From a virus, in IMG/VR virus record IMGVR_UViG_3300038443_001768: a stretch of 64,000 nt of DNA, one strand, 5' to 3'. Below, piece after piece: positions 4,389 through 30,466 of the stretch. The translations under genes were made by a program, and so were the position numbers. The notes below the pieces were generated by a model that had not been told where the DNA came from, did no database searches, and saw nothing but the letters and a program-made list of their open reading frames with translations. Within the stretch, counting starts at the first letter, position 1; every line of letters begins with the position of its first letter.

Positions 4389-4420
4389 AGAGAAAATCGT
4401 ACGTATTGGCTCGCCACAAA

Positions 4421-4451
4421 CACGAAAGGCCAGGTCAATGACCTGGCCTTG
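4421..4451. terminator. Hairpin terminator
   Basis: AAGGCCAGGTCA/TGACCTGGCCTT inverted repeat. Confidence 0.6.
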
Positions 4452-4472
4452 AAAGTGTTCAGCGTTGGTGGT

Positions 4473-4679
4473 CTACTTGTAGTCGGCTACGGTGTCGGCG
4501 TAGACGCGCTTACCGGTCGAGCGGCCGGCGGTGCCGGTCTTGCCTGCGACGCGGTAGTTGGGTGCCTTCTGGTCGGCCAGGTTGGTGAAGGTCTTCGCTG
4601 GCTTCGCAGAGTTGTTGCCCTGGGCCGGGCGAGCGACTGAGCGAGCGCGATTAGCGGTGGGCATAGTCTTTCGAGCCAT
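4473..4679 (-). CDS. Small basic protein (68 aa)
   Basis: MARKTMPTANRARS...; TACTAT -10 box 7 nt before ATG; flanked by terminators. Confidence 0.65.
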   Translation of the reverse strand: MARKTMPTANRARSVARPAQGNNSAKPAKTFTNLADQKAPNYRVAGKTGTAGRSTGKRVYADTVADYK

Positions 4680-4700
4680 GCCAGATATAGTAGACCCCAC

Positions 4701-4730
4701 AACGACAAGGACCGCCCGGAGGCGGCCCTT
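4701..4730 (-). terminator. Terminator after nrdJ
   Basis: AAGG-CCGC hairpin followed by TTGTCGTT on minus strand. Confidence 0.6.
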
Positions 4731-4769
4731 GCGTGACTTCAACGAACCTCGAACCACACTAGAAGTGTA

Positions 4770-6689
4770 TCAGATTTCGCACGAACCAGCCATACAGGCA
4801 AGCTCCTGTGAGCCCTCTGTCATGTCGTCGCTCTCGTAGATCTCCAACAACGACCAATCAACAGCCTTGGGCATTTCCGCGAGCAGTGCCTCGTACTCAG
4901 GCTTCGAGACCTCCTCGTATGGTGCCTGGTCGTAGGTGTGCTCCGAGTACGGCAGGAACGACAGTCCGACAACGATGTCGAAGTTCTCATACACCCAGTC
5001 ACCGACTACGTCCCATTCGTCGTTGCGTACGTTGACCGTTACGGACGGGTTGTGGTCGCACCAATGCTCGGCGAAGACTTTCCAGTGTTCGAGCACATCG
5101 ATTGCTGAGAGATCAGACCTAGTAACGGCCGTCTCCGGTGCCTGCTTTGGGTACGAGAACACCCAGGTCTTATCGGGATTCATCACATCATCCTCACACG
5201 GCACGCCAGCCATGTAGAGAACATTGGCTACCGGGTCGTGCTTGTTGCCTCGATTGCGGCGGATGTAGTATCGACCGTGCGCGGCATGCATTCCGTTTCC
5301 GTGCCCACCAACGAGTTCCGTTGAGTTCCCGGCCGGCTTCATGCACGTCCTGGCCAGCGACGCATTGATGCCAATGATCTCAGCGTACTTGGAGTTCGTA
5401 ACCCTGACTACGTGGTTTAGTTGATCAAGGATGCGGGCCATCTCATCCTTATCAGCCTTAGCGTTCAGCAAGGGCGAGTCCTGGACGCCGGTCATGCCGA
5501 CACCGAGAAGGCGCTCTTCCTCAGAGTTCCTCTTCCAATCATCGCTGATGTAGCGGAAGTGTGTGAACGACGATTGGATTGTTCCGATCATCGTGGCAAC
5601 TCGAACCTTTCTGGTGAGCGAAATCAAGTCATCCTCTGGTCGAACCGTGATCTGCGAGAGGTTGCAGAACTGTCGATCACGAAGGATGATCTCGCCGCAG
5701 GGGTTGAGTCCGAACTTGTAGAACGAGCGGCCCAACTTGGTGGCCTTCGCGGCGGCGGCTGCGCGGTTGAAGAACCCGCGCTCGCCGCTGCCTGAGGCGC
5801 GCAGCGCTGCCCACTCAGCGTTGAAGACTTCTCGCGACGGTCGACCATCCCACGCCGCTGAGTTGTTAGCGAGCGCAAAGTGCTTGCGGTGGTCGTCGTT
5901 GTACCATTCGCCGGACTTGGCGTCGCGCATCATGAGGTCGTCGGGAGACGACAATGAAATCAGCGCAGAACGACGAACGCCGCCCACAACTACGACCTCG
6001 CCCACCATACACATGATGGAGTGCGCCTCGATCGGCGTCAGACGACGACCAGCGGCGTGCTCGAACACACCAATCGTGTGCAAGAACAGCCGCACCAACG
6101 GATCAGGCCCAGAGGCACGCCCGCCAAAGGTCTTGAGCTTCGCGCCGGCCTCACGCACACGCGAGACGTCAAACTCAGGGATGCGCCCCTCGTAGAGAGC
6201 GGAAATCAGGGCACGGAACGCGTATGCCCAGCCGTCCTTGGAATCCTCAACAACAATGACATCATCGACGCGTACCAAGACCGCCGGAATCTCAGGAAGC
6301 TGCTCGACCTCGTCAGGCTCGACAGAAAAACCAACTCCGGTTCCGCACATCAAGATGTGCATGGCCTCGTCAAAGGCCTCCGGGCGATTTACAGCAATAT
6401 ATGAACAGTTGTAGGCGGCTGTAGCGTCGCGCTCCAACGCTGGCCCAGCGGTCATCAATGCGCGCATCGATGGTAGGACGTCGCGCGAAAGGATAGACGA
6501 CCTGATCAGACCGTAGTCCTCTTCAGAGAGCGGTCTGTGGCGTCGCTCAAGATGACTACGAACGTAATCAACAAAACGGTCAACGGTCTCTTCCCACGTC
6601 TCGCGGCGGGCTAGATCATCGCGCCAACGAGCGTACTTGGACTGGTGGATCTGCTGCTCATAAAGCGTCGGCAGCGCGTGCGACAACAT
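4770..6689 (-). CDS. nrdJ: Class II (adenosylcobalamin-dependent) ribonucleotide reductase
   Basis: YNCSY, GTGVGFSV, VVVGGVRRSALISLS, NPCGEI catalytic loop, C-terminal CMAGSCEI redox pair. Confidence 0.95.
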   Translation of the reverse strand: MLSHALPTLYEQQIHQSKYARWRDDLARRETWEETVDRFVDYVRSHLERRHRPLSEEDYGLIRSSILSRDVLPSMRALMTAGPALERDATAAYNCSYIAVNRPEAFDEAMHILMCGTGVGFSVEPDEVEQLPEIPAVLVRVDDVIVVEDSKDGWAYAFRALISALYEGRIPEFDVSRVREAGAKLKTFGGRASGPDPLVRLFLHTIGVFEHAAGRRLTPIEAHSIMCMVGEVVVVGGVRRSALISLSSPDDLMMRDAKSGEWYNDDHRKHFALANNSAAWDGRPSREVFNAEWAALRASGSGERGFFNRAAAAAKATKLGRSFYKFGLNPCGEIILRDRQFCNLSQITVRPEDDLISLTRKVRVATMIGTIQSSFTHFRYISDDWKRNSEEERLLGVGMTGVQDSPLLNAKADKDEMARILDQLNHVVRVTNSKYAEIIGINASLARTCMKPAGNSTELVGGHGNGMHAAHGRYYIRRNRGNKHDPVANVLYMAGVPCEDDVMNPDKTWVFSYPKQAPETAVTRSDLSAIDVLEHWKVFAEHWCDHNPSVTVNVRNDEWDVVGDWVYENFDIVVGLSFLPYSEHTYDQAPYEEVSKPEYEALLAEMPKAVDWSLLEIYESDDMTEGSQELACMAGSCEI

Positions 6690-15683: not shown

Positions 15684-15744
15684 GAGTCTCCTCTAGAACG
15701 ACAAAGACCGCCGAAGCATAGCAGCAACGACGGTCTTTGTAAAG

Positions 15745-15819
15745 TGGTAGCCCCACCGGGGATTGAACCCGGTCTAAGAGTGTGAAAGACTCTCGTGCTG
15801 ACCATTACACCATGGGGCC
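15745..15819 (-). tRNA. tRNA-Glu(TTC), only tRNA with encoded CCA
   Basis: Cloverleaf, loop CT TTC AC. Confidence 0.9.
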
Positions 15820-15827
15820 GTGAAGGG

Positions 15828-15906
15828 TAGCGGAGGTAGGATTCGAACCGTTTATGACGACCTCCTGGTTATGAGCCAGGCGAGCTTCCAACTGCTCTAC
15901 TCCGCG
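15828..15906 (-). tRNA. tRNA-Met(CAT), initiator-like, with insertion in T stem
   Basis: 5' CGCGG, C1:U72 mismatch, loop CT CAT AA. Confidence 0.8.
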
Positions 15907-15912
15907 TGATAG

Positions 15913-15985
15913 TAGGCCGTGCGGGATTCGAACCCGCGTTCTTCACTGTGAGAGAGTGACGAGATAACCGCTACTCCAACGGCCC
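15913..15985 (-). tRNA. tRNA-Glu(CTC)
   Basis: Cloverleaf, loop CT CTC AC. Confidence 0.9.
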
Positions 15986-16005
15986 AAGCTTTGACAAGTG
16001 TAGCA

Positions 16006-16078
16006 CGCCCCCGGCAGGATTCGAACCCGCGACCAGCCGGGTAGAAACCGGCCGCTCTGTCCACTGAGCTACAAGGGC
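16006..16078 (-). tRNA. tRNA-Arg(TCT)
   Basis: Cloverleaf, loop TT TCT AC. Confidence 0.9.
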
Positions 16079-16082
16079 AAGA

Positions 16083-16155
16083 TCGCGGCGAGGGGACTCG
16101 AACCCCATTCGGGCGCTCCTTATGAGGGAGTCCGGGTCAACCGATCCGCGCCGCA
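16083..16155 (-). tRNA. tRNA-Met/Ile2(CAT), atypical
   Basis: T arm and loop CT CAT AA; short D arm. Confidence 0.7.
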
Positions 16156-16158
16156 TTA

Positions 16159-16230
16159 TGTCCCCGGCTGGATTCGAACCAGCGACCTACCGCTTAGGAG
16201 GCGGTCGCGCTTCCGCTGCGCCACGAGGAC
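16159..16230 (-). tRNA. tRNA-Arg(CCT)
   Basis: Cloverleaf, loop CT CCT AA. Confidence 0.9.
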
Positions 16231-16235
16231 TCAAG

Positions 16236-16306
16236 CGGGGCACCTGGGATTCGAACCCAGAAGGCGCGGTTTTGGAGACCGGCCGGCACAACCTACGCTG
16301 TACCCC
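16236..16306 (-). tRNA. tRNA-Trp(CCA)
   Basis: Cloverleaf, loop CT CCA AA, G73. Confidence 0.85.
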
Positions 16307-16396
16307 ATGTACTGGCTGCTTACTTCCGGATCGTGGTCCGGTGTCGGCACTTAGCGGACTCTCCACGTCCACGACAGGAGAACACGGCCAAGTGAG

Positions 16397-16469
16397 GGTG
16401 ACCGATCAGATTCGAACTGACGCCGTCTTGGTTCACAACCAAGAGTGCTACCGCTACACCACGGTCACC
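16397..16469 (-). tRNA. tRNA-His(GTG)
   Basis: Loop TT GTG AA; encoded G-1 and C73. Confidence 0.9.
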
Positions 16470-16474
16470 GAGAG

Positions 16475-16547
16475 CGCCCTTGGCTGGACTCGAACCAGCG
16501 ACCCCCAGCTTCGCAAGCTGGTGCTCTATCCACTGAGCTACAAGGAC
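16475..16547 (-). tRNA. tRNA-Arg(GCG)
   Basis: Loop TT GCG AA in canonical cloverleaf. Confidence 0.9.
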
Positions 16548-16553
16548 TTGGAG

Positions 16554-16627
16554 CGGAAGTGACGGGATTCGAACCCGCGGTCTCGTCCGTGACAGGGACG
16601 CGGGGACGGCCTCTCCCCTACACCTCC
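16554..16627 (-). tRNA. tRNA-Asp(GTC)
   Basis: Loop CT GTC AC, G73. Confidence 0.9.
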
Positions 16628-16639
16628 AAGTTACTTCAG

Positions 16640-16712
16640 CGTCCCTGGCAGGATTTGAACCCGCGACCCCCTGGTTCGAAGCCAGGTGCTCTATCCACTG
16701 AGCTACAGAGAC
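16640..16712 (-). tRNA. tRNA-Arg(TCG)
   Basis: Loop CT TCG AA. Confidence 0.9.
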
Positions 16713-16716
16713 TAAG

Positions 16717-16801
16717 TGCGCGAGGTGGGACTCGAACCCACACGACCCTAAGGCCAACCGGGTTTGAGCCGGTCGTGTCTACCAATTCCTACCACTCACG
16801 C
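16717..16801 (-). tRNA. tRNA-Leu(CAA)
   Basis: Long variable arm, loop CT CAA AC. Confidence 0.9.
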
Positions 16802-16812
16802 GAAGACTGCTA

Positions 16813-16896
16813 TGACATCGAGGGGATTCGAACCCCTATGACCTCTCGGCCGGCAGGGTCTAAGCCTGCTGCGTATACCAATTCCACCACGATGCC
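16813..16896 (-). tRNA. tRNA-Leu(TAG)
   Basis: Long variable arm, loop CT TAG AC. Confidence 0.9.
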
Positions 16897-16900
16897 GGAG

Positions 16901-16984
16901 TGCGCTGAACAGGACTCGAACCTGCACGGGTTTTACCCCACAAGGCTCTCAACCTTGCGTGTCTACCAATTCCACCACCAACGC
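16901..16984 (-). tRNA. tRNA-Leu(GAG)
   Basis: Long variable arm, loop TT GAG AG. Confidence 0.9.
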
Positions 16985-17106
16985 GAAATCCCATCAGAGG
17001 CCAGGGCGTCGATGGGAAGGACTACCTTGACCGCCCTCCGCCCAAGCGGCGAAGAATTCGCGTGCTGCCACACGCTTGCCCTCGGTGGCAGCCGAGGGGC
17101 GATCTC
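16985..17106 (-). ncRNA. Unknown 122-nt multi-hairpin RNA with kissing loops
   Basis: Closing stem GAGATC/GATTTC, five hairpins, complementary loops CTGCCA/TGGCAG; fills the Pro-Leu spacer. Confidence 0.6.
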
Positions 17107-17112
17107 AGTGAG

Positions 17113-17184
17113 TCGGGGACGCGGGAGTCGAACCCGCCACCACTCCGTTCCAAGCGGAGGATGCAACCGCTACACCTGACCCCG
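17113..17184 (-). tRNA. tRNA-Pro(TGG)
   Basis: C1:G72, loop CT TGG AA. Confidence 0.9.
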
Positions 17185-17187
17185 TAG

Positions 17188-17260
17188 TGGTCGATGCAGG
17201 TCTCGAACCTGCGACCTCATGCGTGTCGAGCATGCGCTCTACCAACTGAGCTAATCGACC
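17188..17260 (-). tRNA. tRNA-Val(GAC)
   Basis: Loop TC GAC AC (C33 instead of U33). Confidence 0.85.
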
Positions 17261-17274
17261 AAGGTACTACTAAG

Positions 17275-17347
17275 CTCCGCCGCCAGGATTCGAACCCGGA
17301 ACTCTCGGGTAACAACCGAGCACGTTCTCCGTTTACGCCACAGCGGA
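17275..17347 (-). tRNA. tRNA-Asn(GTT)
   Basis: Loop TT GTT AC, G73. Confidence 0.9.
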
Positions 17348-17352
17348 TCGTA

Positions 17353-17425
17353 TTGCAGGCCTAGGATTCGAACCCAGACTTCACGGCTTCAGAGGCCGGC
17401 GGGCTGCCAGTTACACCAGCCTGCA
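17353..17425 (-). tRNA. tRNA-Gln(CTG)
   Basis: U1:A72, loop CT CTG AA. Confidence 0.9.
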
Positions 17426-17429
17426 TTGA

Positions 17430-17501
17430 ATGCGGGACTCGGGTTCGAACCGAGCCGATGAGCTTCAAAGGCTCACGTGCTGCCAGCTACACCATCCCGC
17501 A
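17430..17501 (-). tRNA. tRNA-Gln(TTG)
   Basis: U1:A72, loop CT TTG AA. Confidence 0.9.
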
Positions 17502-17514
17502 GAGGAAGGAAAAC

Positions 17515-17537
17515 AACTCTAGCATAGTCTCGTGACA
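17515..17537 (-). promoter_or_regulatory. Promoter of tRNA operon 1
   Basis: TGTC-N9-TGCTAGAGTT, same motif before all three tRNA operons. Confidence 0.7.
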
Positions 17538-17540
17538 AGC

Positions 17541-17970
17541 GTGGGCCGGACAGCGATGAACGCCGCCCGGCCCACTACCCGGAGAACCATGACCACCAAC
17601 TGCTCCTGTCGCGAAACCTGCGTGCGACAAGCCTGCACTGCCGGACCGGAGAGGAGCGCCGACGACCTAGCGCTCAACTCTCCGGCCCATAAGCCCTTTC
17701 GGGGAGAGGAGGGACTCCACCCTCAACGTCACGACCCGGCGTGGGCAGCCGTTCGGTGATAGCCAATACCACCCAGGTCGATCCGTGCTCATCGACGGGC
17801 CGCCAAGCCCAACACATCGCTGACTCGGAGTGGCTGCTCCTGTCCACCGCTACGACTCCCAGGCTGATGACCCTGTCGTGCAGCTTTTCCCGACGCTTCG
17901 ATGACACTTTAGCCGCGTGCTGCTACGGCTTGTTCGGTCACTCTCTGCCGCACTGGCCGGTGCGGCGTTG
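17541..17970 (-). ncRNA. Unknown ~430-nt highly structured RNA
   Basis: Own promoter (TGCTACAGT at ~17976-17984), no credible ORF, about ten hairpins, strong terminal hairpin. Confidence 0.6.
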
Positions 17971-18020
17971 AAGGAACTGTAGCACATGTCGAGGGGTGTG
18001 TGTCAAGGCCGAGACGGAAA

Positions 18021-18708
18021 TCAATCTGCGCGCCCGTCGTTCAAGGCGTCGATCCGCGCCTGCGCGTCTTCAATGTCCTCCGCGCACGTCGGCCCGATCC
18101 ACTTGCCTTCCCGCGAGTCGTAGACCTCGCAGCCAGGAGGACCGTGCAGGCAAGCGACGATCGCGGCGTCCTGATCGTCGTAGCCGGTCTCCATGCCCAG
18201 CGCGAACATCCCGGCGCAGCCGACGCGGTAGCGGCTCATCGCCATCCATCCGGCCTGCTCTTTTCGGTCAACGTGGCGATCCCGACGCGCCCCCGCCAGC
18301 GCTTGTCGTCGGCATGGGGGTCGCGGAACTCGTTGCCGCTCAGCGCGCCGTGCAGCGCGTTCCTGACGCCGTGCGCCGGACGGCCTGCGAGCAGGTCGGA
18401 CCGCGCCGTATCGAGCAGATGCAGAAGATCGCGCTGCGCCGCGGTCATCGCTCCGGCGCTCCTTTCTGGCCCATCTCGGCGATCTGCGCGAGCGCTTCCA
18501 CGACCTCGCGCCAGTCGTCGCCCGGCACGCAAGCGAGCCGTGTGCCTTCGAGGTGGTCCACAATCAGATCGGGGACACCGGCCGCGCGCATCCGGCGCTG
18601 GGCGTAGTCGATGCGGTTCCACGCAGCCCCGAGCGCGTCGTAGGCGTGCTTCACGTCGGCCTGGAGATCGTCGATCGACGGGCGCCCGTTTAGTTCTGAA
18701 TTCGTCAT
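18021..18708 (-). CDS. Three small hypothetical genes (18021-18239, 18236-18448, 18445-18708)
   Basis: ATGA-coupled ORFs divergent from cca. Confidence 0.55.
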
Positions 18709-18768
18709 GCCGCTAGTATGGCAGCTTCGGGCGTTGCAGTCCAGAGGACGACGTGGTACGCTCCCTCA

Positions 18769-20190
18769 ATGACCAACGTACGCGCGGCGGACGCCCTGAT
18801 GGCGGATATCTTCGGAAAGGACGCGTATCGCGTCGGCGGCAGCGTGCGTGACGAAGTTCTCGGCCGCCACATCAAGGACGCCGACTATGTCGTTCAGCAC
18901 CACACGCTGGACGCGATCAAGCGAAAGCTTCGTCGCGGCTTCGAGCATCGCGGTCAGGTCGCGATCACGAAGCTCGAACTCCGTACCGGACAACACGCCG
19001 GATGGCGCGTCGGCGCGCCTTGGAACATCGAGATCATGATGCCGCGAGGCGAGCAGAAGGTCGAGACCGACGAGGGTAACGAGCGGCACAAGTTCATCAT
19101 CACGCTCGACCCCGACATGCCTCTGGAGGTCGACGCTCTGCGGCGCGACTTCACAATGAACGCCCTGTATCGAAACGTCGTCACCGGAGAGATTGACGAC
19201 CCTCTGGGCGGCGTCGCGGCGATCGAGGACGGTGAGGTCACGACGACGGATGCGTCGTCGTTCCGCGACGACCCTCTGCGCACGCTGCGCGCTCTGCGCT
19301 TCGTGTCGCAACTTGGCTTCGATCTCGACGACGACACGTATGGACAGATGTTCGTGCACGCGAAGTCTGTCGATGGGCTCACCGACAAGGGTGTCTCTGG
19401 AACTGCGTTCGACGAACTCTGCAAGATCCTGATGGGCCGACACGTCGCGAAGGCGCTGCGGCTCGCGAGGGATTCACGGGTTCTGGAGTCGCTGCTGCCG
19501 GAGCTTGCTCCGATGCTGGGTCACGACCCGCAGAACTCGCACCATGCGTTCTCAACCGACGAGCACACCTTCGTCGCCCTCGACGTTGCGGCCGGCTTCG
19601 GGCTGCCGCTGAGGGTGCGTCTCGCGCTGCTCTTCCACGACGCGGGCAAGCCGCTCGTCGAGTGGGTCGGAAAGGACGGCATGAAGCACTACTTCGAATC
19701 CAAGGATCAGCCAGGATCGATCGATCACCAGGAGGCGTCGGCGGAGTTGTGGCTCGCCGTCGCGGACCGCCTGAACGTACCGCGTTCACTGCGGCGCGAT
19801 GTCGAGACGTTGATCCGGCGTCACATGGTACCGCTGACGCTACGTCTGAAGCCGGCGAAGGTCCGCAAGTGGCGATGCGAGCTTGGCGACGACCTGCTCG
19901 CAGACCTGCTGCGGCACCGGCTCTGCGATGTCATGGCCAAGGGCGTCATCGACTACGAGGCCATGCGCGCAGTGAATCGCATGGAGGAGATCCGCGAGGA
20001 CGCCGTCCGCGACGGGGTGCCTGTGACGGTTCGCGACCTCCCCGTCTCGGGCGGAGACATCGCCGCTATGGGCGTCAGCGGCCCTCGGATCGGTGAGATT
20101 CAGCGGCAGCTTCTCCACGAGGCGGTTTCGCAGCCCTCCAACAACACACGAGACCGCATGTACATGCGGGCGCTGAAGCTGGCTGCGTGA
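18769..20190 (+). CDS. cca: CCA-adding tRNA nucleotidyltransferase (class II) with HD domain
   Basis: VGGSVRDEVLG..KDADYV, DALRRDFTMNAL, FRDDPLRTLRALRF, LLFHDAGKP; TACGCT box 6 nt before ATG. Confidence 0.92.
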   Translation: MTNVRAADALMADIFGKDAYRVGGSVRDEVLGRHIKDADYVVQHHTLDAIKRKLRRGFEHRGQVAITKLELRTGQHAGWRVGAPWNIEIMMPRGEQKVETDEGNERHKFIITLDPDMPLEVDALRRDFTMNALYRNVVTGEIDDPLGGVAAIEDGEVTTTDASSFRDDPLRTLRALRFVSQLGFDLDDDTYGQMFVHAKSVDGLTDKGVSGTAFDELCKILMGRHVAKALRLARDSRVLESLLPELAPMLGHDPQNSHHAFSTDEHTFVALDVAAGFGLPLRVRLALLFHDAGKPLVEWVGKDGMKHYFESKDQPGSIDHQEASAELWLAVADRLNVPRSLRRDVETLIRRHMVPLTLRLKPAKVRKWRCELGDDLLADLLRHRLCDVMAKGVIDYEAMRAVNRMEEIREDAVRDGVPVTVRDLPVSGGDIAAMGVSGPRIGEIQRQLLHEAVSQPSNNTRDRMYMRALKLAA

Positions 20191-20597
20191 CCACCGAGCT
20201 TCTTAGCGGCGACAGGTCTGCTGTTGAGGAGGCGGCGCGGAACATAGAACAAGCCGCGCGCAACCGTTTCGATGCTGGACATGTCTACATGCTTGAGTCG
20301 TCATCAGACAGAGCATATAAAGTCGGATACTCGGTCTCACCGATTGACAGACTCTACGCAATACGCAAGCAGGCCAACGATAAGTCAATCTCCTATGTGG
20401 GCTCGATTAGGGGGGCTCTTCGTCTCGACGAATATGCGATCCACCGAGAACTTGACGAGCTTGGATTGCGCTGGAGCGGCCGCTATTTAGGCACGTTCGA
20501 GTGGTTTCATGCGACGGCGGAGCTTGATGTTTTGGCTGACGTGCTTCGCGGTCTGTCCATCGAACGTAGAAACGCGCGAGGCTTCAGCTACTCTTGA
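20187..20597 (+). CDS. T5orf172/GIY-YIG-like domain protein
   Basis: HVYML...YKVGYS..P.DRL...E..IH...EWF pattern. Confidence 0.7.
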   Translation: MTTELLSGDRSAVEEAARNIEQAARNRFDAGHVYMLESSSDRAYKVGYSVSPIDRLYAIRKQANDKSISYVGSIRGALRLDEYAIHRELDELGLRWSGRYLGTFEWFHATAELDVLADVLRGLSIERRNARGFSYS

Positions 20598-20622
20598 CAG
20601 CGGTAGCCGGCTTCGCTAGCGT
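20594..20622 (+). promoter_or_regulatory. Primary-sigma-type promoter
   Basis: TTGACA-17 nt-TAGCGT. Confidence 0.6.
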
Positions 20623-20667
20623 TGCCTTCGCATACTCATCCATCCGAAAGAAGGTTATCCCCTGTCT

Positions 20668-21333
20668 GTGATTGAGGCCAGCGCTGTCTACGGGCAGCGA
20701 CCCATCAACTTCGGAGTCTGGCCACTGGACTGGTCAGAGTACATGCATTACCTGTACTTGCCGGTCGTGATGCCAGGACATCGCGGCGTACGGCTGCCTG
20801 AGCGGTTGCAGTTTCTACGACCGATCGTCGACCTCGTCTGCGCACAGGAAGACATCGCTGTTAGTCTGCCTGACTACTATGTCTATGTGACTGCGCGGCG
20901 GGGCTGGGCGTCGCCCGACAACCCGCTCAACCGGCCCGGCTGGCACTCAGACGGCTTCGGAACCAACGACGTCAACTACATCTGGGCCGATCGCTTTCCG
21001 ACACGCTTCGCGATCCAGGAGTTCGTCGACATCAGCGACAACCACGTCGACTCTCTGCGCCAGTTCGAGGAGCAGAGCGACGAGGACTCGGTCGTCGTCT
21101 ACCCAGACTGCTCGTTGCTGCGGCTCGATCCTGAGGTCATCCACGCGACGCCGGTGGTTCCGCCGCCGGGAGGCGAGCGTAGCTTCTTCAAGATCAGCGT
21201 CTCGTCTGAGCGATACAACTTGGCCGGCAACAGCCACAACTATCTCTTCGACTACGAGTGGCGGATGTGGTCGCGATCAGAGATCCGCAATGACCCCAAC
21301 TACGCTGGCGGCGATGCCGGCCCGCAGTCATGA
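20668..21333 (+). CDS. Putative 2OG-Fe(II) oxygenase-like protein
   Basis: NRPGWHSDG (HxD), distal H (VIHAT) and RxFFK motif. Confidence 0.65.
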   Translation: MIEASAVYGQRPINFGVWPLDWSEYMHYLYLPVVMPGHRGVRLPERLQFLRPIVDLVCAQEDIAVSLPDYYVYVTARRGWASPDNPLNRPGWHSDGFGTNDVNYIWADRFPTRFAIQEFVDISDNHVDSLRQFEEQSDEDSVVVYPDCSLLRLDPEVIHATPVVPPPGGERSFFKISVSSERYNLAGNSHNYLFDYEWRMWSRSEIRNDPNYAGGDAGPQS

Positions 21334-22169
21334 TCGACGCAGACTTTGAGGGCGAGCGACTGCTCATCGACCTTCTCGAACGCTACGAGTCCGACACTGG
21401 CCGTCAATTGCTGGAAGAGGACTATGAGAGCGTCATCATGACGCACGCATTCGAGGCCGCCAGTCTCGTCGAAAGCGTCTACAGCGAACTAGCAAAGCTT
21501 CCCACATGAGCGACGACCTAAGGAAGTTCGTCGAGGTCATGGGAGGCGTCCGTTGTATCTGTGGGCACCTACTGCGCCGGCATCGCCGACCAGACCCGAG
21601 CTTCAAGGTCGGCGCGCTGGTCGAGAAGTGCGGCGCGTGCTGGGACTGCGAATGCAAGGGCGAGGTAGGACTTCCCGATGGAGGCGAGGTATGACACTAC
21701 GCGAGGGCCGTCACCATCAGTGGCGCGTGTTCTTCACGGCCGCCGACGAGGACATGGTTGGCGTCCAGTGGCGCGACGAACCAATCTCAGATGACGAACT
21801 CGCTGAGTGGCGACATCAGTTCGTTTGCGACGTTTGGGTTGAGCGGCGCGAAATCATCTGCGGCCCTCCAGTGAGGCTTGATCGATGACGGTATGGGAGT
21901 TCTGGACCTGCGATTGGTGCAACCAGGACAACAGCGGACGCGAGCCACTCTACGAGGACCTAGCAGACGATGAAGGCTGGGTTCAGGTTGATAAGCACGA
22001 GATGAGGGACAACGGTAGCGGGGCGCTTTGGTCGTCTCACGTCGATGAGCACTTTTGTGCAAAATGTCTCACTGATCCAGAACTGTTCGAATATATCGAC
22101 AGCGAGCAATTTAGGCCTGTCTATGGCCGGGACGAAGATCGCCTCAACGCGGCGAGGGCCGCGCTGTGA
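21330..22169 (+). CDS. Run of small hypothetical genes (including 21506-21694 and 21885-22169)
   Basis: ATGA-coupled short ORFs, some Cys-rich. Confidence 0.5.
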
Positions 22170-22608
22170 GGCTGCGCGGCGTGGCGCTGTGGAGATGGAA
22201 GGCGGCGTGTCGCCTCTACCGAATCGGATGCACGGTCGGCGGTAACCATCGCTGGCCCGATCAGTTAGGCCTGGAGTTCGATGAGGTCTGGCGCGAGCAC
22301 TACTGTCCGCACTGCGGGTGGATGCCGTGAGCGTCGGTGACAACCTCGCCCGCTGGAAGGCGTTGCCGACCTGCGCGACCTGGCGCGTCTTCAGTGAGCG
22401 CTGGGGAACCGTGGACTCGATACATGTCGACCATCGCGACGCCCAGAGGCGCGCCGATGAACTCAATCAAGCGGAGGCGCTGAAGCAAGCTCACGGGGAA
22501 CTGTGATAGGCTTCCGCGCTCAATCCACAACAAAGGAGGTTATCCACCGGCCTAGGCCGGACCGCTGAGGAAGCGTAAGGGTCCGGAGAGTAGGCCGAGG
22601 GAGATGTT

Positions 22609-23007
22609 ATGCGGAGTACGATCCTGGGGCTCTTGGCCGCCCTCTCACTGGGAGGCCCTTCGGCCTCTGCTCAGGACCACCAGTCCTGCCACACCAAGTC
22701 TTGCACGTTGCGTGTGGAGATGAAGTTCTACAAGAAGCATCCGATGCCCTGGTGCACGTGGGGACCTGAGAGTCCAGGCCATCCTGAGTGGTCGCCGGCC
22801 CGTTACCGTGTCTGGAACACCAGCGGTAGCTCGCCAGAGCGCGCCAGCGGCAAGTTTCAGATCATCGGCCCTACTTGGCGCGCCTACGGAGGTCAGCGTA
22901 TCTCAGGTCGCCGACACGCGGCGGAGGCTGCGCCGGTCTATCAGGAGCGCATCGCGCGAAGTATCGCGCGCGCGAGGCCGTCGCTCTCAGACTGGGTAAA
23001 TTGTTGA
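22609..23007 (+). CDS. Secreted Rpf-like lytic transglycosylase
   Basis: Signal peptide; ES catalytic motif, GKFQIIGPTWRAYGG, Q.RIA, terminal W..C as in resuscitation-promoting factor domains. Confidence 0.75.
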   Translation: MRSTILGLLAALSLGGPSASAQDHQSCHTKSCTLRVEMKFYKKHPMPWCTWGPESPGHPEWSPARYRVWNTSGSSPERASGKFQIIGPTWRAYGGQRISGRRHAAEAAPVYQERIARSIARARPSLSDWVNC

Positions 23008-23014
23008 CCTGAAG

Positions 23015-23050
23015 AACGACGAAAGGCCGCCCTCGGGCGGCCTTTGTTGT
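23015..23050. terminator. Bidirectional terminator
   Basis: AAAGGCCGCCC/GGGCGGCCTTT hairpin. Confidence 0.75.
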
Positions 23051-23051
23051 A

Positions 23052-23136
23052 CGGAGAGACAGGGATTCGAACCCTGGAAGGTGTGACCCTTACGCGCTTT
23101 CCAGGCGCGCCCATTCGGCCTCTCTGGCACCTCTCC
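23052..23136 (-). tRNA. tRNA-Ser(GGA)
   Basis: Long variable arm, loop CT GGA AA. Confidence 0.9.
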
Positions 23137-23139
23137 TGA

Positions 23140-23211
23140 AGTCGCGGAGCGGAATCGAACCGCTGTAAACGGGGTTGCAGCCCGTTGCCTAAGCCACTCG
23201 GCCACCGCGAC
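23140..23211 (-). tRNA. tRNA-Cys(GCA)
   Basis: U73, loop CT GCA AC. Confidence 0.9.
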
Positions 23212-23215
23212 GGAG

Positions 23216-23302
23216 CGGAGAGACAGGGATTCGAACCCTGGAGGCTTTGACACCTACTCGGCTAGCAACCGAGCGCATTCGGCCGGACTCTGCCACCTCT
23301 CC
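23216..23302 (-). tRNA. tRNA-Ser(GCT)
   Basis: Long variable arm, loop TT GCT AG. Confidence 0.9.
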
Positions 23303-23342
23303 TGGCACCCGATCGCGGCCACGTGGACGGCGTCGGGCTGAG

Positions 23343-23426
23343 CGGAAGCAGAGGGATTCGAACCCCCGACGGTGGTTAGCCGCAGCCGCTTTCAAGGCGG
23401 TGTCCTCGACCAGCCGGACTACTTCC
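23343..23426 (-). tRNA. tRNA-Ser(TGA)
   Basis: Long variable arm, loop CT TGA AA. Confidence 0.9.
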
Positions 23427-23431
23427 GTGAG

Positions 23432-23518
23432 CGGATGGTAGAGGATTCGAACCTCTGAGGGTGTTACCCCTACTCGCTTTCGAGGCGAGCGCATTCAACC
23501 AGGCTCTGCCAACCATCC
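23432..23518 (-). tRNA. tRNA-Ser(CGA)
   Basis: Long variable arm, loop CT CGA AA. Confidence 0.9.
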
Positions 23519-23522
23519 GAAA

Positions 23523-23604
23523 TGACGCGCCAAGGACTCGAACCTTGAATGCCGTGAGGCGGCCGGGTTACAGCCGGCTGGGTGCTCCCGCTCCCACACG
23601 CGCC
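23523..23604 (-). tRNA. tRNA-Tyr(GTA)
   Basis: Long variable arm, loop CT GTA AC. Confidence 0.9.
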
Positions 23605-23613
23605 GAGACAGTC

Positions 23614-23636
23614 AACTGTAGCAGATCTACGCGACA
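23614..23636 (-). promoter_or_regulatory. Promoter of tRNA operon 2
   Basis: TGTC-N9-TGCTACAGTT. Confidence 0.7.
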
Positions 23637-24157
23637 AGCGAGCAGACGCCTGTGTCTGGCTCTACGACCTCGATCTCAAAGGTGTTCAGATGCGGAGTCG
23701 CGCGAGCCTCTGCCTCCTCGCGGGCCACGCGCGCCGCTACCTGCTCGGCCGTCTCAGGAATCGGCCAGTTGCCGTTCTCGTCCTTGAGAGCGGTTAGGTC
23801 TTCGCCCAACTGCTCCAACATGAAGAACAATAGCGGTGTATGCGCCTTCTTCTGATTGCAGTCGAAACATGAGCCTGATCGATTTGTCCACGAGCCCTTT
23901 GATCCACCTAGCGCCTTCGGCTGGACGTGGTCAACGGTAGTTCCGCGCAGGCACGCGCAGTATGCACATGGGTCGCGACGGATGATGTGGTCCCAAACGG
24001 CGCGAGATGCGTGCGGCCGGCGCAGTAGGCCGCCAAGACGCGCTCCGGATGGGACGCGAGCGTGGATTAGCTCGTCACCGCACGCAGGGCAAGACTTACC
24101 GCGGAGTTCCGCAGTGAAGCCGGCCTTGCACGAGGAGCACCAGATTAGCTGTGCCAC
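23627..24157 (-). CDS. HNH endonuclease with N-terminal Zn ribbon
   Basis: CAYC...TVDHVQP...GG...N...CFDCNQKK. Confidence 0.85.
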   Translation of the reverse strand: MAQLIWCSSCKAGFTAELRGKSCPACGDELIHARVPSGARLGGLLRRPHASRAVWDHIIRRDPCAYCACLRGTTVDHVQPKALGGSKGSWTNRSGSCFDCNQKKAHTPLLFFMLEQLGEDLTALKDENGNWPIPETAEQVAARVAREEAEARATPHLNTFEIEVVEPDTGVCSLVA

Positions 24158-24177
24158 CCATGCAGTGTACCAGTTCG

Positions 24178-24525
24178 TTACCCGAGGTCGGTGACGATCT
24201 TGACGGTGAGGTAGCTGTCGGCCGGGAAGGTCTGAATCTTCGACCCCGGCCAGGTGACCTCGATTTCAACGTTGTAGTCGCCTTCGATGTTTGTGTCACC
24301 GGAGATCCACGTGTACTCGACCACGCCGTTTGCGGCATCAAAGACAGTCGCCGCGGCGGCGACCTTAGGTCCTCCCGTCGTCGATGTCTTCAGCCGCATG
24401 ATGAACTTGACCGAGGTGATTCCGGACAGATCTACCGGCGTCGTGACCAACGTCTCAGGATCTGTTTGCAGCAACTGTGCGCGGTATGTGGGCAACAGGT
24501 CGTTGCGCTTCATCGTAAACGACAC
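24178..24525 (-). CDS. BppU N-terminal-like structural protein
   Basis: VDLSG..SVKF, GVVEYTW..GDT..EGDYNVE, QTFP motifs; paralog of 24705-25037. Confidence 0.65.
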   Translation of the reverse strand: MSFTMKRNDLLPTYRAQLLQTDPETLVTTPVDLSGITSVKFIMRLKTSTTGGPKVAAAATVFDAANGVVEYTWISGDTNIEGDYNVEIEVTWPGSKIQTFPADSYLTVKIVTDLG

Positions 24526-24705
24526 TTAGTACTCCTGGGCTGAATAGGTCTTAGGTGTATGCTCCGACGCACCAAAAGATGGACGTGCGTTCTCTACAGC
24601 GGTCACCCCAATCACCGACGGGAACTCGACCATAGTTGGGTCGATCACAGGATTCAGGATCGCATCGAGCGCGTCAATGTATTCGATGGCTTGGTCGTTC
24701 AGCAT
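24526..24705 (-). CDS. Small hypothetical protein (59 aa)
   Basis: TAATG-coupled ORF between the two BppU-like paralogs. Confidence 0.5.
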   Translation of the reverse strand: MLNDQAIEYIDALDAILNPVIDPTMVEFPSVIGVTAVENARPSFGASEHTPKTYSAQEY

Positions 24706-25037
24706 TAGGCTAGATCGTTGACGATCTTACAGGTGAAGTAGCCGTACGAGGGGAATGTTTGCGGTTCGTCGCCCCACATGACCTCAAATTCAACATTGAA
24801 ATCTCCCGCAGTGGCTGTGTCCCCGTCAGCCCATGCGTATTCGACGATCCCATTGACTGGGTCTACGAAATCGGCGGCCGAGTTCACTACTACTACGCCG
24901 CTCTTTCCGGTCATGATGAAGCGAACAGACGACGCGCCTGAAAGATCTACCGGGACCTGGATTCCAGTAGAGGGGTCGCTCTGTGTGAGCTTGACCCGAT
25001 AGCGCGGACGGCGGTCGTGTCGCTTGATGACGAACAT
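24705..25037 (-). CDS. BppU N-terminal-like structural protein (paralog)
   Basis: Same motif set as 24178-24525. Confidence 0.65.
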   Translation of the reverse strand: MFVIKRHDRRPRYRVKLTQSDPSTGIQVPVDLSGASSVRFIMTGKSGVVVVNSAADFVDPVNGIVEYAWADGDTATAGDFNVEFEVMWGDEPQTFPSYGYFTCKIVNDLA

Positions 25038-25058
25038 TACTAATGAGTGTACAGCGCG

Positions 25059-28000
25059 CTACGAACCGGCCAGCAAGTCGATGACTTCGCCGCTCGCCAC
25101 GTAGGGAATCACATGTCCCGACGCGACAGCAGGAAATACGTGACCGGAGAGTGGGGGCTCATGATGAACGTACGCGATCACAACCGGCCCAGAGATAATG
25201 ATCGCATCCGACAGCACAAACGACTGAGCCAGCACACGCGCCAGCGACTGATGAAAGACCAGCGAGTCGACAAGTACATTCACCTCAGAAACAGAGAAGA
25301 CGCCGCCGCTGGTGCCGGCCACGTTGTCGACCACAACGATTGAGCCGTTCACCGAGCGCACAATCGAAACGGCCCCCGAGAGCGCATCCGCCAACGCCGC
25401 GGTCTCCGCCAGCGCGCGGCTATCAGCGATCAGCGACCCAGCCGCATCAGACAAAAACACCGATGTTGTCGCTGTTCGTCCCAGCGACAAAAGACCCAAT
25501 AGTGTGTCGGCGACGGACAATGACTCAGACGCCGGCCGCGGCAAAACCACGCCCGACGCGGTTACGTCGGCTACGACGACTGACTCATCAAGCGAGCGCG
25601 GGAATGCGCGCACAACGGCATCGCCCAGGGCTAGTGAATCAGAAAGCGATCGAGAGTCACCCACCGACCTCGACAAGCTCTCTGAGAGTGCCGCGGTCTC
25701 CGTGATAGCGAGCGAGTAGGCTCGCTGAATAGTCGCGACACCGAAGGTCTCGGCGGACGAGATCGCAGTCATGTAGAGAGTGCTCGTCGACTGCGCTACA
25801 TCGATCTGGTTGTAGTAGATCCCGTTTGAATCCGAGTACACGTACGGGATCAGTACTTCATTAGAGCGGGTGCCGTTGGTGACGTTGATGCGATTGAATG
25901 TTCCCGCATGCGCGGCCGAACCTAGCCCCAGGGCGTTTGAGAACGACCCCACACCTGGGGTTCCTGAGTAGATTCTCAGGTCGCGGTCGGAGTCCGAGAT
26001 GTGAACTACGACCTCGGTGTCGCGAGCGCCGTTCACCTCGGCGTTTGCGAGGTTCGCTAGGGTCGTGTCCGCGTATGAGTCGCCGGCCGATCCGACATTT
26101 GAACGAATCGTGAACGTCGGCGAATCCGCTGGAGCCCATTCGAGTACGTTCGTATTACCGGCGGAGGTCGTAGACGTGCCCGACGCTCTCCTCCGGTAGG
26201 CGGCGCGCATCCTGATCACTGATGACGAGTCCGCATACATGACCGGCGTCGCCATGTCTAGAGCGGCGTAGAAGTTGTTGGGGCCGTCGATTGACTGTGG
26301 GCCGGTACCACTGATACGGGCGTCGGCGGCGATGAAGGAGTCGGCCGCGCTCAAAACCCGGTAATAGAGGCCGTCGGCTGAGCCACCGGCGGTGGCCTTC
26401 TCGACGAAGAAGTAGGCGCGGTCTGAGTTGTCGATCGCGATTCCAACAACCAGGGCGTCGGCCTGGCCTGCGACTTCCTGCGCCACGAGTACGTCGCGTG
26501 TCCACGTACCGGAGTTCGTCCGCTTAGCGTAGTAGGTGCGCCAATTTCCGGTGGCCGTTTTGCCGTAGGCGATGATGGAGTCGCCGTTTGAGCGCACACC
26601 AAGATAGACACCGACGCCGGTATTGAGGCTGGAGATCCCCGAGTCCTCATCAAGTGTCCATGTGTCTGACGAGGTGTCGAAGCGCGCGTACCTGATTACG
26701 TTGTCGCTCTGTGCGTACGCGACATGAAGGATCGAGCCGACGATCTTTGTATCGACGGCGTCGATGGTCGTGCCGGCCGTGGTTACGGTGCGCTCGCCGG
26801 ACGTGTTGACCGCCGACCACGTGCCCTGCATCGGATCTGCGGCCTTATAGACCCTGACGCTGCGCGAACCCGACACGTCACGGTAGGCGGCCACATAGGT
26901 GGCTCCGTTTGGTGCAACCCACGGACCGCAAGTGCCCGGCTTCGACGACAGCTTGATCGTTGAATCACCAAAGCTGTTCGGTGGGGCAGTGACGCGCGTC
27001 GCGTAGACGTCAGACTTGGGCCGTAGCGTAAACGGTCCGCCTGAGTAATAGGCGCTGCTGTAGCTCTGTGCGGCGACCGCGTTGTCCTCGACGCAGAAGA
27101 CGAGACCGCTGCCGCGATGTCCACGCGTGCTCGTGTAGCGCACCCATTCGCCGTACACGAACGACCCCATGTTGCCGGTGCCGATGTTCTCGGTCGTCCA
27201 GCCTCCGGACGCACCCTCGGTGAACGAGAATGCCATCGTTGGCAAGCCGCTCGACGCGGAGCGGTACGCCATGCCAAGGAGCCCGGGGGCCAACTGCGTC
27301 AGCGCCGGGCGGCCCGACGCAGAGGTCAGACAACTCGAAGCGTCGGGCGTCCATGTTGAGCCGTCGTCGGTAGAGATAGCCCTGAAGAACCGAAACGGCG
27401 AAACAGTATCAGAGCGCATCATGCAGATGATGATGCGGCTGTTATCGCTGCGCGTGTAGACGCACAGGTTGGGCTCAACACGCTCGGTCGTCGCGTCCTG
27501 AGCGATCACGCCGATGTCGGTCCACGACACGCCGCCGTTGGTTGAACGGGCGAGTCGACTGTAACCAATGGTTGATGCTCCGTCGCCGCCGTAGGCGGCC
27601 AGCAGCAGCGTACCTGACCCGTCGGGGATACACACGGGAGGGCCGCTGACGTCGGTGCCCCAGGCGCTACCAGGAAGCGAGGTGTTGGGGTTGGTGGCGG
27701 TGAACGAAAACGGAACCTGGACCGGGTTGCTCCACGTGAACCCGTTGTCGTCGCTGTAGAGCGTCCACGCCGTGTACTCAAGGGTCGTCTTGCTGACGCG
27801 CGTAGCGCTGAGTACGAGCCGGTTGTCGTGCGAGCCTCCCTCGACCTTAGCGAGGCCGAGGTCGAGCCACCCATAGTTGGAATCCGAGCGAAGCTGTGTG
27901 ATCTCAACCGGACTACCCCACGTGGCGCCCTCGTTGGTTGAGCGCAGGTAGTACGAGTACTGATCGAGCGCCAGGTGATGCGTCGCATTGCCGTAGGCGG

Positions 28001-28124
28001 CCAACAGGTCGCCGTTTCCGCACTGGACGCCACCACCGAAGGCGTTGTACTGTTTGCCGGAGAGGTCCTCGTGAAGCTTTGTGTTTGCCCCCCAGCGTGT
28101 CGGGCTGACTTGCTGAACGCTCAT
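25059..28124 (-). CDS. Large Asp-box (BNR/sialidase-like) beta-propeller protein, probably virion-associated
   Basis: Asp boxes STNEGATW, SDDNGFTW, STNGGVSW, STDDGSTW; Ser/Ala-rich repetitive C-terminus. Confidence 0.75.
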   Translation of the reverse strand: MSVQQVSPTRWGANTKLHEDLSGKQYNAFGGGVQCGNGDLLAAYGNATHHLALDQYSYYLRSTNEGATWGSPVEITQLRSDSNYGWLDLGLAKVEGGSHDNRLVLSATRVSKTTLEYTAWTLYSDDNGFTWSNPVQVPFSFTATNPNTSLPGSAWGTDVSGPPVCIPDGSGTLLLAAYGGDGASTIGYSRLARSTNGGVSWTDIGVIAQDATTERVEPNLCVYTRSDNSRIIICMMRSDTVSPFRFFRAISTDDGSTWTPDASSCLTSASGRPALTQLAPGLLGMAYRSASSGLPTMAFSFTEGASGGWTTENIGTGNMGSFVYGEWVRYTSTRGHRGSGLVFCVEDNAVAAQSYSSAYYSGGPFTLRPKSDVYATRVTAPPNSFGDSTIKLSSKPGTCGPWVAPNGATYVAAYRDVSGSRSVRVYKAADPMQGTWSAVNTSGERTVTTAGTTIDAVDTKIVGSILHVAYAQSDNVIRYARFDTSSDTWTLDEDSGISSLNTGVGVYLGVRSNGDSIIAYGKTATGNWRTYYAKRTNSGTWTRDVLVAQEVAGQADALVVGIAIDNSDRAYFFVEKATAGGSADGLYYRVLSAADSFIAADARISGTGPQSIDGPNNFYAALDMATPVMYADSSSVIRMRAAYRRRASGTSTTSAGNTNVLEWAPADSPTFTIRSNVGSAGDSYADTTLANLANAEVNGARDTEVVVHISDSDRDLRIYSGTPGVGSFSNALGLGSAAHAGTFNRINVTNGTRSNEVLIPYVYSDSNGIYYNQIDVAQSTSTLYMTAISSAETFGVATIQRAYSLAITETAALSESLSRSVGDSRSLSDSLALGDAVVRAFPRSLDESVVVADVTASGVVLPRPASESLSVADTLLGLLSLGRTATTSVFLSDAAGSLIADSRALAETAALADALSGAVSIVRSVNGSIVVVDNVAGTSGGVFSVSEVNVLVDSLVFHQSLARVLAQSFVLSDAIIISGPVVIAYVHHEPPLSGHVFPAVASGHVIPYVASGEVIDLLAGS

Positions 28125-28130
28125 CAGCGC

Positions 28131-28559
28131 TTAGAGCTTGAAGATCTTGCCGGTCGAGTTGTCCCAGGCTACGATGATGTCGCCGCCATTGGGTGTGACG
28201 GGCAGGTTCGTCATAGTGTCGACGTAGGCGATGAGGCGCTGAGCGGAAGCCGCAACATCGGCCCCGCCAGTGACGGCGGAGGCCTGATAAATGATCACGC
28301 TGGTGATTGAGGCTCCGGAGGCCACGGACGCGAACGTAGCGTCGCTGGCGTCGGCGACACCGCCGGTAATGGTCTTCGAGGTCAGCGTCACAGTGGCAAC
28401 GAGAGTGCCGCCTCCAGCGCCTGTGACGTCGGAGACGAACTTATGCGAAGAACTATATGTGTAGCCGCGAACCAGCGACACCTTGATCGTCGCTGTGTCC
28501 CAGTCGATCTCTCCAGCTAGGAAGCCCTCGCGGCCTGCGTCATAGAGCGCGTTGGCCAT
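28131..28559 (-). CDS. Putative minor structural protein
   Basis: MANALYD...LPVTPNGGDI...KIFKL, a pattern recalled from phage tail-associated genes. Confidence 0.6.
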   Translation of the reverse strand: MANALYDAGREGFLAGEIDWDTATIKVSLVRGYTYSSSHKFVSDVTGAGGGTLVATVTLTSKTITGGVADASDATFASVASGASITSVIIYQASAVTGGADVAASAQRLIAYVDTMTNLPVTPNGGDIIVAWDNSTGKIFKL

Positions 28560-28567
28560 GGGCGTGA

Positions 28568-29551: not shown

Positions 29552-29581
29552 CAACGGCTCTGGATGTGGTACGCTTCCTGG

Positions 29582-30070: not shown

Positions 30071-30201
30071 TCGTGCGTAGTCCGCTCTGGGCCGTTTACA
30101 GCCTCGTGATGACCAGTGTCGTGGCTGTGTACGGAGTGCTCACGATTCGATTGTTGCGTGAGTTCAGAGCAGAGTACGAGGAGTACAAGGACTTGCTGTA
30201 G

Positions 30202-30236
30202 AACGACGAAAAGCCCCCATCTCAGGGGGCTTCTCT
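30202..30236. terminator. Bidirectional terminator
   Basis: AAGCCCCC/GGGGGCTT hairpin between pth2 operon and tRNA operon 3. Confidence 0.7.
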
Positions 30237-30239
30237 ATA

Positions 30240-30313: not shown

Positions 30314-30390
30314 GAGCCCCGGGCTCGCACCGGGAACCATCAGGCTCGTAGTACCTGACCTTTGGACGCCCTTGGCGTCGGTGCATTGAG

Positions 30391-30462: not shown

Positions 30463-30466
30463 TTGA

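Follow-up and report, generated by a model that had tools for sequence, protein, structure and literature searches.

The window analyzed here, a stretch of 64,000 nucleotides (IMG/VR record IMGVR_UViG_3300038443_001768), comes from an uncultured phage, has a GC content of 58 to 65%, and represents DNA that is present in soil and rhizosphere metagenomes; no close relative of it was found among 50,697 phage records. ARAGORN identified 36 tRNAs in the window, organized as three minus-strand arrays. None of the tRNA genes in the region 15745-31431 encodes CCA, and their trailers start C/U rich (e.g., UCA or UUC), which agrees with the presence of the phage's own CCA-adding enzyme gene at 18718-20190. 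The first array runs on the minus strand from tRNA-Gln(UUG) at 17501 down to tRNA-Glu(UUC) at 15745 and is followed, after its last tRNA, by a terminator-like hairpin at about 15707-15728, the sole such site; neither a promoter-like nor a terminator-like site was found in the spacer studied below or elsewhere inside this array. Directly upstream of the operon lies a subthreshold match to the manA RNA (17699-17965, minus strand; 35.9 bits against a gathering score of 55.2; E = 1e-7 in a 571-nt search). The array also includes a noncanonical tRNA-Trp(CCA) (16236-16307, minus strand), with an anticodon loop CUCCAAA and a normal T arm, that was missed by ARAGORN and drew from Rfam only a 25.4-bit tRNA-Sec match; a tRNA-Trp occupies the same position in relatives. 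A 183-nt contig from the rhizosphere metatranscriptome run X12 is identical to the Asn/Gln/Gln tRNA stretch at 17296-17476, with an AG insertion of the type seen in the related contig L002 (see below); being a contig in an RNA library, it is no proof of transcription. No other contig was obtained here from X12, so that the Pro-Leu spacer described below is uncovered in this run; such a hole in contigs weighs neither for nor against expression.

The inter-tRNA spacers of the array normally span 2 to 19 nt, whereas the gap between tRNA-Pro(UGG) and tRNA-Leu(GAG) spans about 127 to 128 nt and is occupied on the minus strand by a folded RNA element at 16985-17112, the count starting one base past the Pro discriminator. 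The initial annotation of this DNA described a 122-nt RNA filling the spacer; the fold indeed lies in the spacer, but the true length of the latter is 128 nt. As that annotation also had it, the 3' end of the element is at the RNase P site of tRNA-Leu, for its last base, 16985, adjoins G+1 of that tRNA. Other long gaps exist between tRNAs of the window. A second long spacer in the same array (16308-16395, minus strand; 88 nt), between tRNA-His and tRNA-Trp, shares its opening CUCACU with the Pro-Leu spacer and has a folding energy of -29.2 kcal/mol; its L002 counterpart is nearly identical. Further minus-strand gaps are found at 30539-30674 (136 nt), 30314-30389 (76 nt), and 31292-31357 (66 nt); the first of these, between two tRNA-Thr genes, has recognizable pieces of tRNA, namely, a part resembling a T arm and a 5' tRNA half, and the other two form strong hairpins.

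Minimum free energy (MFE) folding recovered the same shape for the element in the window and for its only homolog, the L002 allele: a 7-bp stem, P1, closes a four-way junction with three hairpins, H1, H2, and H3, and is followed by a separate 3' hairpin, H5. The RNAalifold consensus agrees with this shape. The element and its neighbors, in the 5'-to-3' order of the transcribed strand, are as follows:

17113-17184, minus strand: tRNA-Pro(UGG), the upstream neighbor (ARAGORN; Rfam 45.1 bits), with no encoded CCA; the L002 allele is strongly diverged in the alignment.
17105-17112, minus strand: single-stranded leader of 8 nt, CUCACUGA, identical in L002 and of the length class of ordinary inter-tRNA spacers.
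17029-17104, minus strand: cloverleaf-like core of exactly 76 nt, with P1 enclosing H1, H2, and H3 in the MFE structures of both alleles.
17098-17104 with 17029-17035, minus strand: P1, the closing stem GAUCGCC/GGCGGUC, 7 bp, pair probability about 1.0.
17080-17097 or 17080-17098, minus strand: H1 (CCCTCGG/CTGCCA/CCGAGGG), stem of 6 to 7 bp, loop CUGCCA at 17086-17091; three pairs are changed on both sides in L002, and the loop is invariant.
17060-17075, minus strand: H2 (GCGTG/TGGCAG/CACGC), stem of 5 bp, loop UGGCAG at 17065-17070; four of the five pairs are changed on both sides in L002, and the loop is invariant.
17036-17054, minus strand: H3 (CTTCGCC/GGCGGAG), stem of 7 bp with the 5-nt loop GCUUG; L002 has two double and two single compensatory changes.
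17017-17028, minus strand: an unpaired A after P1 and then a weak AAGG/CCUU hairpin with a pair probability of 0.13, in which a G-C pair becomes G.A in L002.
16990-17016, minus strand: H5, the 3' hairpin CCCAUC/GAUGGG with a 15-nt loop, pair probability 1.0; the stem is invariant, and the loop has two changes in L002.
16985-16989, minus strand: AUUUC, the 5 nt that lead up to the RNase P site of tRNA-Leu.
16900-16984, minus strand: tRNA-Leu(GAG), the downstream neighbor (ARAGORN), 100% identical in L002.

In outline, the core is laid out like a tRNA cloverleaf: H1 and H3 directly adjoin P1, the stem of H2 measures 5 bp, H3 comes after a connector of 5 nt, and the base next to P1 on its 3' side is an unpaired A. 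H1, H2, H3, and H5 had all been proposed in the initial annotation and are present on the minus strand with the sequences given there. So are the perfectly complementary 6-nt loops of the first two hairpins, the UGGCAG of H2 being the exact complement of the CUGCCA of H1. The closing stem put forward in the same annotation, GAGATC/GATTTC, has a pair probability of only about 0.002 and gives way to P1 (GATCGCC/GGCGGTC), and its AAGG/CCTT hairpin is weak and loses a pair in L002. The overall stability of the element (MFE of -59.4 kcal/mol) is modestly below that of shuffled sequences (z = -2.18). Its shape is rarer: among 1,000 dinucleotide shuffles, a cloverleaf-type junction of any kind arose 46 times, and a cloverleaf that measures 70 to 80 nt and is closed by 7 bp or more arose 3 times. 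We also scanned both strands of the window for neighboring pairs of perfect hairpins, requiring stems of 5 bp or longer, loops of 4 to 8 nt, a separation of up to 60 nt, and 6 or more complementary bases between the two loops. Apart from tRNAs that lie side by side, whose T-loops are palindromic, the H1-H2 pair is the only such site. The hexamer TGGCAG as such is not enriched in the window (29 occurrences against 29.7 expected).

The sole homolog of the element is found in a related phage contig, L002 (IMG/VR 3300037312_001121), where it occupies 150 nt at 4420-4569. Since MAFFT misaligns H2, we built a covariance model on the fold of the window sequence and used it to align the second allele, which scored 98.9 bits; searched with this model, the window and 18 related loci yielded no additional copy. 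In this comparison of just two alleles, with the alignment fitted to the model, all 31 pairs are standard in both, nine are changed on both sides (three in H1, four in H2, and two in H3), and none is broken. As a control, sliding the partners by 1 to 3 columns left 36 to 43% of cells able to pair and yielded 0 to 1 double changes, and RNAalifold retrieved the same nine double changes. P1, the 8-nt leader, and the H5 stem are unchanged between the alleles, and covariation is thus uninformative for them. H3 is approximately 22 nt longer in L002. The stems of H1 to H3 retain only 14 of 34 identical positions (41%), whereas the two loops are identical at all 12; by our own arithmetic, the chance of 12 unchanged loop bases at the observed stem divergence is approximately 1e-4 to 1e-5. 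Because diverged stems keep every pair while the loop bases stay unchanged, we interpret this pattern as selection for RNA structure. On sequence evidence, this points to the element being a real, selected RNA-type secondary structure with two sequence-constrained, complementary loops. As the loop bases never vary, the pairing of one loop with the other is deduced from complementarity alone. The closing pairs of H1 and H2 both change from G-C to A-U in L002 and thereby keep an 8-bp complementarity, a weak signal that amounts to an approximately one-in-four coincidence.

These results bear out the earlier description of a discrete, compact RNA structure, which is evolutionarily maintained within the tRNA operon. 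The condition named there as refuting it, loss of loop complementarity in homologs, does not refute it, since the one homolog, L002, keeps both loops on rewritten stems. The second pseudoknot in that description, between the last loop (CGCCCU, in H5) and an upstream AGGGCG at 17032-17037, is a possible one. The bases can pair, with 5 of 6 pairs kept in L002 and one G-C pair replaced by A-U on both sides, but the AGGGCG segment overlaps the 3' strand of P1 and the changed base also covaries within H3. This pairing may be an alternative state or a coincidence.

The genomic surroundings of the two alleles have the appearance of a mosaic. Window positions 15745-17501 and L002 positions 3174-4961 are about 98 to 100% identical over most of their length, with diverged patches at tRNA-Pro(UGG) together with the H1-H3 part of the spacer, at the D-arm region of tRNA-Asp, at tRNA-His, and at tRNA-Glu(UUC). 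From the sequences, this looks like swapping of alleles of single tRNAs by recombination. Given that the diverged patch also spans tRNA-Pro(UGG), and given this mosaic look, the separation of the two alleles may be an old one. Both were recovered together in one soil/rhizosphere DNA run, at depths of 33 and 109; the array is also present in ten other soil and rhizosphere runs (X2-X11). The contig of another close relative (L001/L131; IMG/VR 3300037420_001343, also G001; 139.5 kb) opens within the array, at the pair of Gln tRNAs, and nothing along its length matches the Pro-spacer-Leu region; the assembly probably broke at the polymorphic patch.

Searches against known families and sequence collections retrieved no other relative. 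Rfam produced nothing credible over the spacer at the gathering threshold (whole window) or at E <= 10 (16150-17200), where only noise was seen. The same search of 16150-17200 at E <= 10 gave no match to self-cleaving ribozymes (hammerhead, twister, pistol, hatchet, HDV-like, and others), and the Rfam models for SRP, including the Alu domain, and for the phi29 pRNA (RF00044) likewise did not match. The scan against self-cleaving ribozyme and SRP Alu models that had been suggested for this spacer was thus negative, and the ribozyme and Alu-domain identities floated earlier lose their footing, as no Rfam family other than noise was seen over the spacer at E <= 10. The tRNA model RF00005 (gathering score of 29 bits) has no match in 16985-17112 even at E <= 10, and ARAGORN calls nothing there; the YrlA Y RNA model matches only genuine tRNAs in the region and nothing in the spacer. 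Searches with blastn of the spacer against the 50,697 phage records returned only chance matches of 25 to 33 nt. Exact-pattern scans of IMG/VR with three motifs of the spacer recovered the L002 contig and one chance match (L003), and a scan of JGI metagenomes with the variable arm of tRNA-Leu(GAG) gave 0 matches. Structural patterns combining a P1 strand with both loops gave 86 metagenome and 38 viral matches, of which only one (L004, the L002 contig itself) has both hairpins; the others are taken to be chance matches since none carries both. Compared with the other long spacers of the window, the element showed no similarity at p <= 0.05; only the region upstream of the operon gave a weak value (p = 0.035). 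The element thus lies outside every Rfam family, and with a motif known from the sequences of two alleles, it is a candidate rather than a discovery. We also considered and rejected a coding function, because the alleles differ by a length change of 22 nt and the open reading frames run into the tRNAs.

The window belongs to a wider phage family with a shared CCA-adding enzyme (44 to 66% identity) and array layout, with members such as L005, L006, and L007 among Logan contigs and L133-L140 in IMG/VR. In three of them (L006, L007, and L134), Pro(UGG) is followed by Pro(CGG) and then by Leu(GAG), 4 to 10 nt apart, and in L005, Pro(CGG) lies in the same slot behind a 355-nt insert between the two Pro genes. 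The lineage of the window is without Pro(CGG) and Pro(GGG), and the cloverleaf element stands at the place of Pro(CGG). A derivation of the element from the lost tRNA-Pro(CGG) is plausible. A family-specific model built from the Pro(CGG) genes of seven relatives scores the element at 5.4 bits (E = 0.17 in a 301-nt search). Local alignments to the seven genes mostly have p > 0.05, with the best short matches at mutually inconsistent positions (the window allele matches the L005 gene at its 5' end over 13 of 14 bases, and the L002 allele matches its D arm over 12 of 13). The L005 insert between tRNA-Pro(UGG) and tRNA-Pro(CGG) carries, on the strand opposite to the tRNAs (1220-1648, plus strand), a reading frame for an HNH endonuclease (CxxC ... 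HH ... CANCH), which, judged by sequence, shows that a relative has a hot spot for insertion at this position. The idea that the element is a remnant of such a gene was rejected: the window has a faint "ACCH" echo of "CANCH," and the alignment to the L005 insert is not significant.

The interpretation that we prefer, with roughly even confidence, is that the element is a lineage-specific, nondecoding, probably tRNA-derived structured RNA that occupies the tRNA-Pro(CGG) slot, is cotranscribed with the tRNAs, is cut out by RNase Z and RNase P, and uses its loops as a working surface. It would be transcribed together with the 19 tRNAs of the operon. With no CCA encoded in these genes, cuts after the Pro discriminator (RNase Z or 3' trimming) and at Leu +1 (RNase P) should, by the established course of tRNA maturation, free a 128-nt RNA. 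RNase P or RNase Z may also cut the cloverleaf itself; if recognized as a tRNA, it would be cut at 17104/17105 and after A17028, giving a species of about 77 nt. The most likely behavior of the two conserved loops would then be pairing from one molecule to another or alternation with a long-range helix of 8 bp that joins the two loop regions; this helix is approximately 5 kcal/mol costlier than the MFE fold and has a probability of about 0.2. Both options are favored over a full kiss within the molecule because the hairpins are short and adjacent. When two 6-nt loops form a 6-bp helix, it continues both stems in a coaxial stack, as is the case for TAR-TAR* complexes. By an estimate from A-form geometry, this would place the stem bases about 18 bp (approximately 50 Å) apart, a distance that the linker between H1 and H2 (4 nt in the window and 7 nt in L002, between hairpin stems of 7 bp and 5 bp) cannot bridge. 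It is thus unlikely on steric grounds that a single molecule forms the whole 6-bp kiss, and the intramolecular kissing-loop fold offered in the initial annotation is not supported by this estimate.

Several alternatives have to be set against this interpretation. A purely cis-acting spacer, whose self-contained fold keeps pre-tRNA-Pro and pre-tRNA-Leu from misfolding or orders the cuts by RNase P, Z, and E and is then degraded with no function in trans, would fit an element that lies inside a polycistronic tRNA precursor without signals of its own and whose H5 ends 5 nt before the RNase P site, and there are other structured long spacers at 16308-16395, 30314-30389, and 31292-31357. We nevertheless regard it as unlikely: apart from two long gaps, the other tRNA pairs of the operon manage with 2 to 19 nt, a plain tRNA fills the slot in relatives, and a passive insulator leaves the 12 of 12 invariant, complementary loop bases on 41%-identical stems unexplained. 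Neutral decay of a tRNA-Pro(CGG) pseudogene, or some other neutral filler with hairpins that are leftover arms, should break pairs, but nine double changes and no broken pair are seen, and the loops, which are not those of a tRNA, are perfectly conserved. The pseudogene explanation does account for the slot being that of the Pro(CGG) gene of relatives, for the tRNA-sized cloverleaf, and for the short matches to Pro(CGG) (13/14 in the window and 12/13 in L002), and the same genome has tRNA fragments in its 136-nt Thr-Thr gap; the Pro(CGG) similarities are, however, neither significant nor mutually collinear, and we consider this origin quite improbable.

Very unlikely, in our assessment, is the single-molecule double pseudoknot originally envisaged, in which H1-H2 kissing and a second loop-to-upstream pairing would build a ribozyme, an Alu-like fold, or a decoy. 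It draws on the perfect, conserved complementarity of the loops and on the second pairing, which largely persists in L002 with its one double change. It is countered by the lack of any match to ribozyme, SRP, or other Rfam models, by a proposed GAGATC/GATTTC closing stem that is thermodynamically negligible, by competition of the second pseudoknot with the 3' strand of P1, and by a 4-nt linker between the 7-bp and 5-bp hairpins that, on A-form geometry of the TAR-TAR* type, would be too short for a coaxial 6-bp loop-loop helix. We give least credence to a signal at the DNA level, either a protein-binding inverted repeat (GCTGCCAC ... GTGGCAGC) or a hot spot of recombination or homing. Here, L002 keeps the inverted repeat, of 8 bp, as ACTGCCAT ... 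ATGGCAGT, the slot is an insertion hot spot with the HNH endonuclease gene of L005, and this stretch forms a mosaic patch when the two alleles are compared. The repeat halves are, however, 13 bp apart in one allele and 16 bp apart in the other, which a dimeric binding site would not tolerate, and a protein site does not explain why three further hairpin stems covary independently.

By analogy, the closest functional parallels of such an RNA would be the small stable RNAs from phage tRNA clusters and the nondecoding tRNA look-alikes. The RNAC and RNAD of phage T4, known as stable RNA species 1 and 2 of its tRNA gene cluster, are made from the same precursors as tRNAs, are released by tRNA-processing enzymes, measure approximately 120 to 140 nt, and are known to accumulate. 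Our element resembles them in lying inside a tRNA transcription unit, between tRNAs and on the same strand, and in its similar size; the likeness is one of context and size, as no RNAC or RNAD Rfam family was matched here, and the complementary loops are a feature of the element that is not described for the T4 RNAs. With the canonical tRNA, and specifically with the tRNA-Pro(CGG) of relatives, it has in common the slot, the strand, the 76-nt four-way junction, the 7-bp closing stem, and the 5-bp second arm, as well as the 5-nt connector before the third arm, the placement of that arm flush with the closing stem, and the unpaired A that follows. It differs in the absence of the GG of the D loop, of a T loop (TTCRA), of a 7-nt anticodon loop with U33, and of the connector after the closing stem and in having a third arm that is about 22 nt longer in L002. 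Nondecoding, tRNA-like modules, some of them encoded by phages, are also found in the YrlA-type Y RNAs of bacteria and phages (RF02553) and in other tRNA mimics, from which the element is set apart by having no T-loop or D-loop elbow.

A further parallel is with the pRNA of phage phi29, whose loops pair hand in hand between molecules. Like the element, this is a phage RNA of about 120 nt with two mutually complementary loops that are too close for pairing within the molecule. The likeness is confined to loop complementarity and the short linker: the loops of the element have 6 nt rather than 4 nt, and it lies in a tRNA operon rather than among packaging genes. Should the cloverleaf behave in the same way, it could be a self-assembling block in which the H1 loop of one molecule pairs hand in hand with the H2 loop of the next, giving dimers or closed rings, a model that we offer by analogy and regard as a long shot. 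GOLLD and ROOL, structured phage RNAs that lie beside tRNA islands, assemble via intermolecular kissing loops (PMC12286853). Along with manA, they are several times larger than the element, and no homology of any of them to the spacer was found; the connection to manA is that the subthreshold match heads the element's own operon.

Phage tRNA islands keep yielding structured RNAs without an assigned role, such as T4 RNAC and RNAD, GOLLD, ROOL, and manA; the first two, small structured RNAs encoded among phage tRNA genes, are still of unknown function (PMC9697503). The element described here is a small and tractable candidate example, in which a 76-nt cloverleaf apparently evolved in a tRNA slot, shed all decoding features, and acquired two conserved complementary loops. 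If the cloverleaf does self-assemble, this phage, whose operon is headed by a manA-like RNA, would have in it a minimal equivalent, derived from a tRNA, of the assemblies that GOLLD and ROOL build from RNA alone. If it is stable, it would offer a simple system for studying the roles of nondecoding tRNA-like RNAs, be it self-assembly, action as a decoy against tRNA-directed host defenses, or control of precursor processing.
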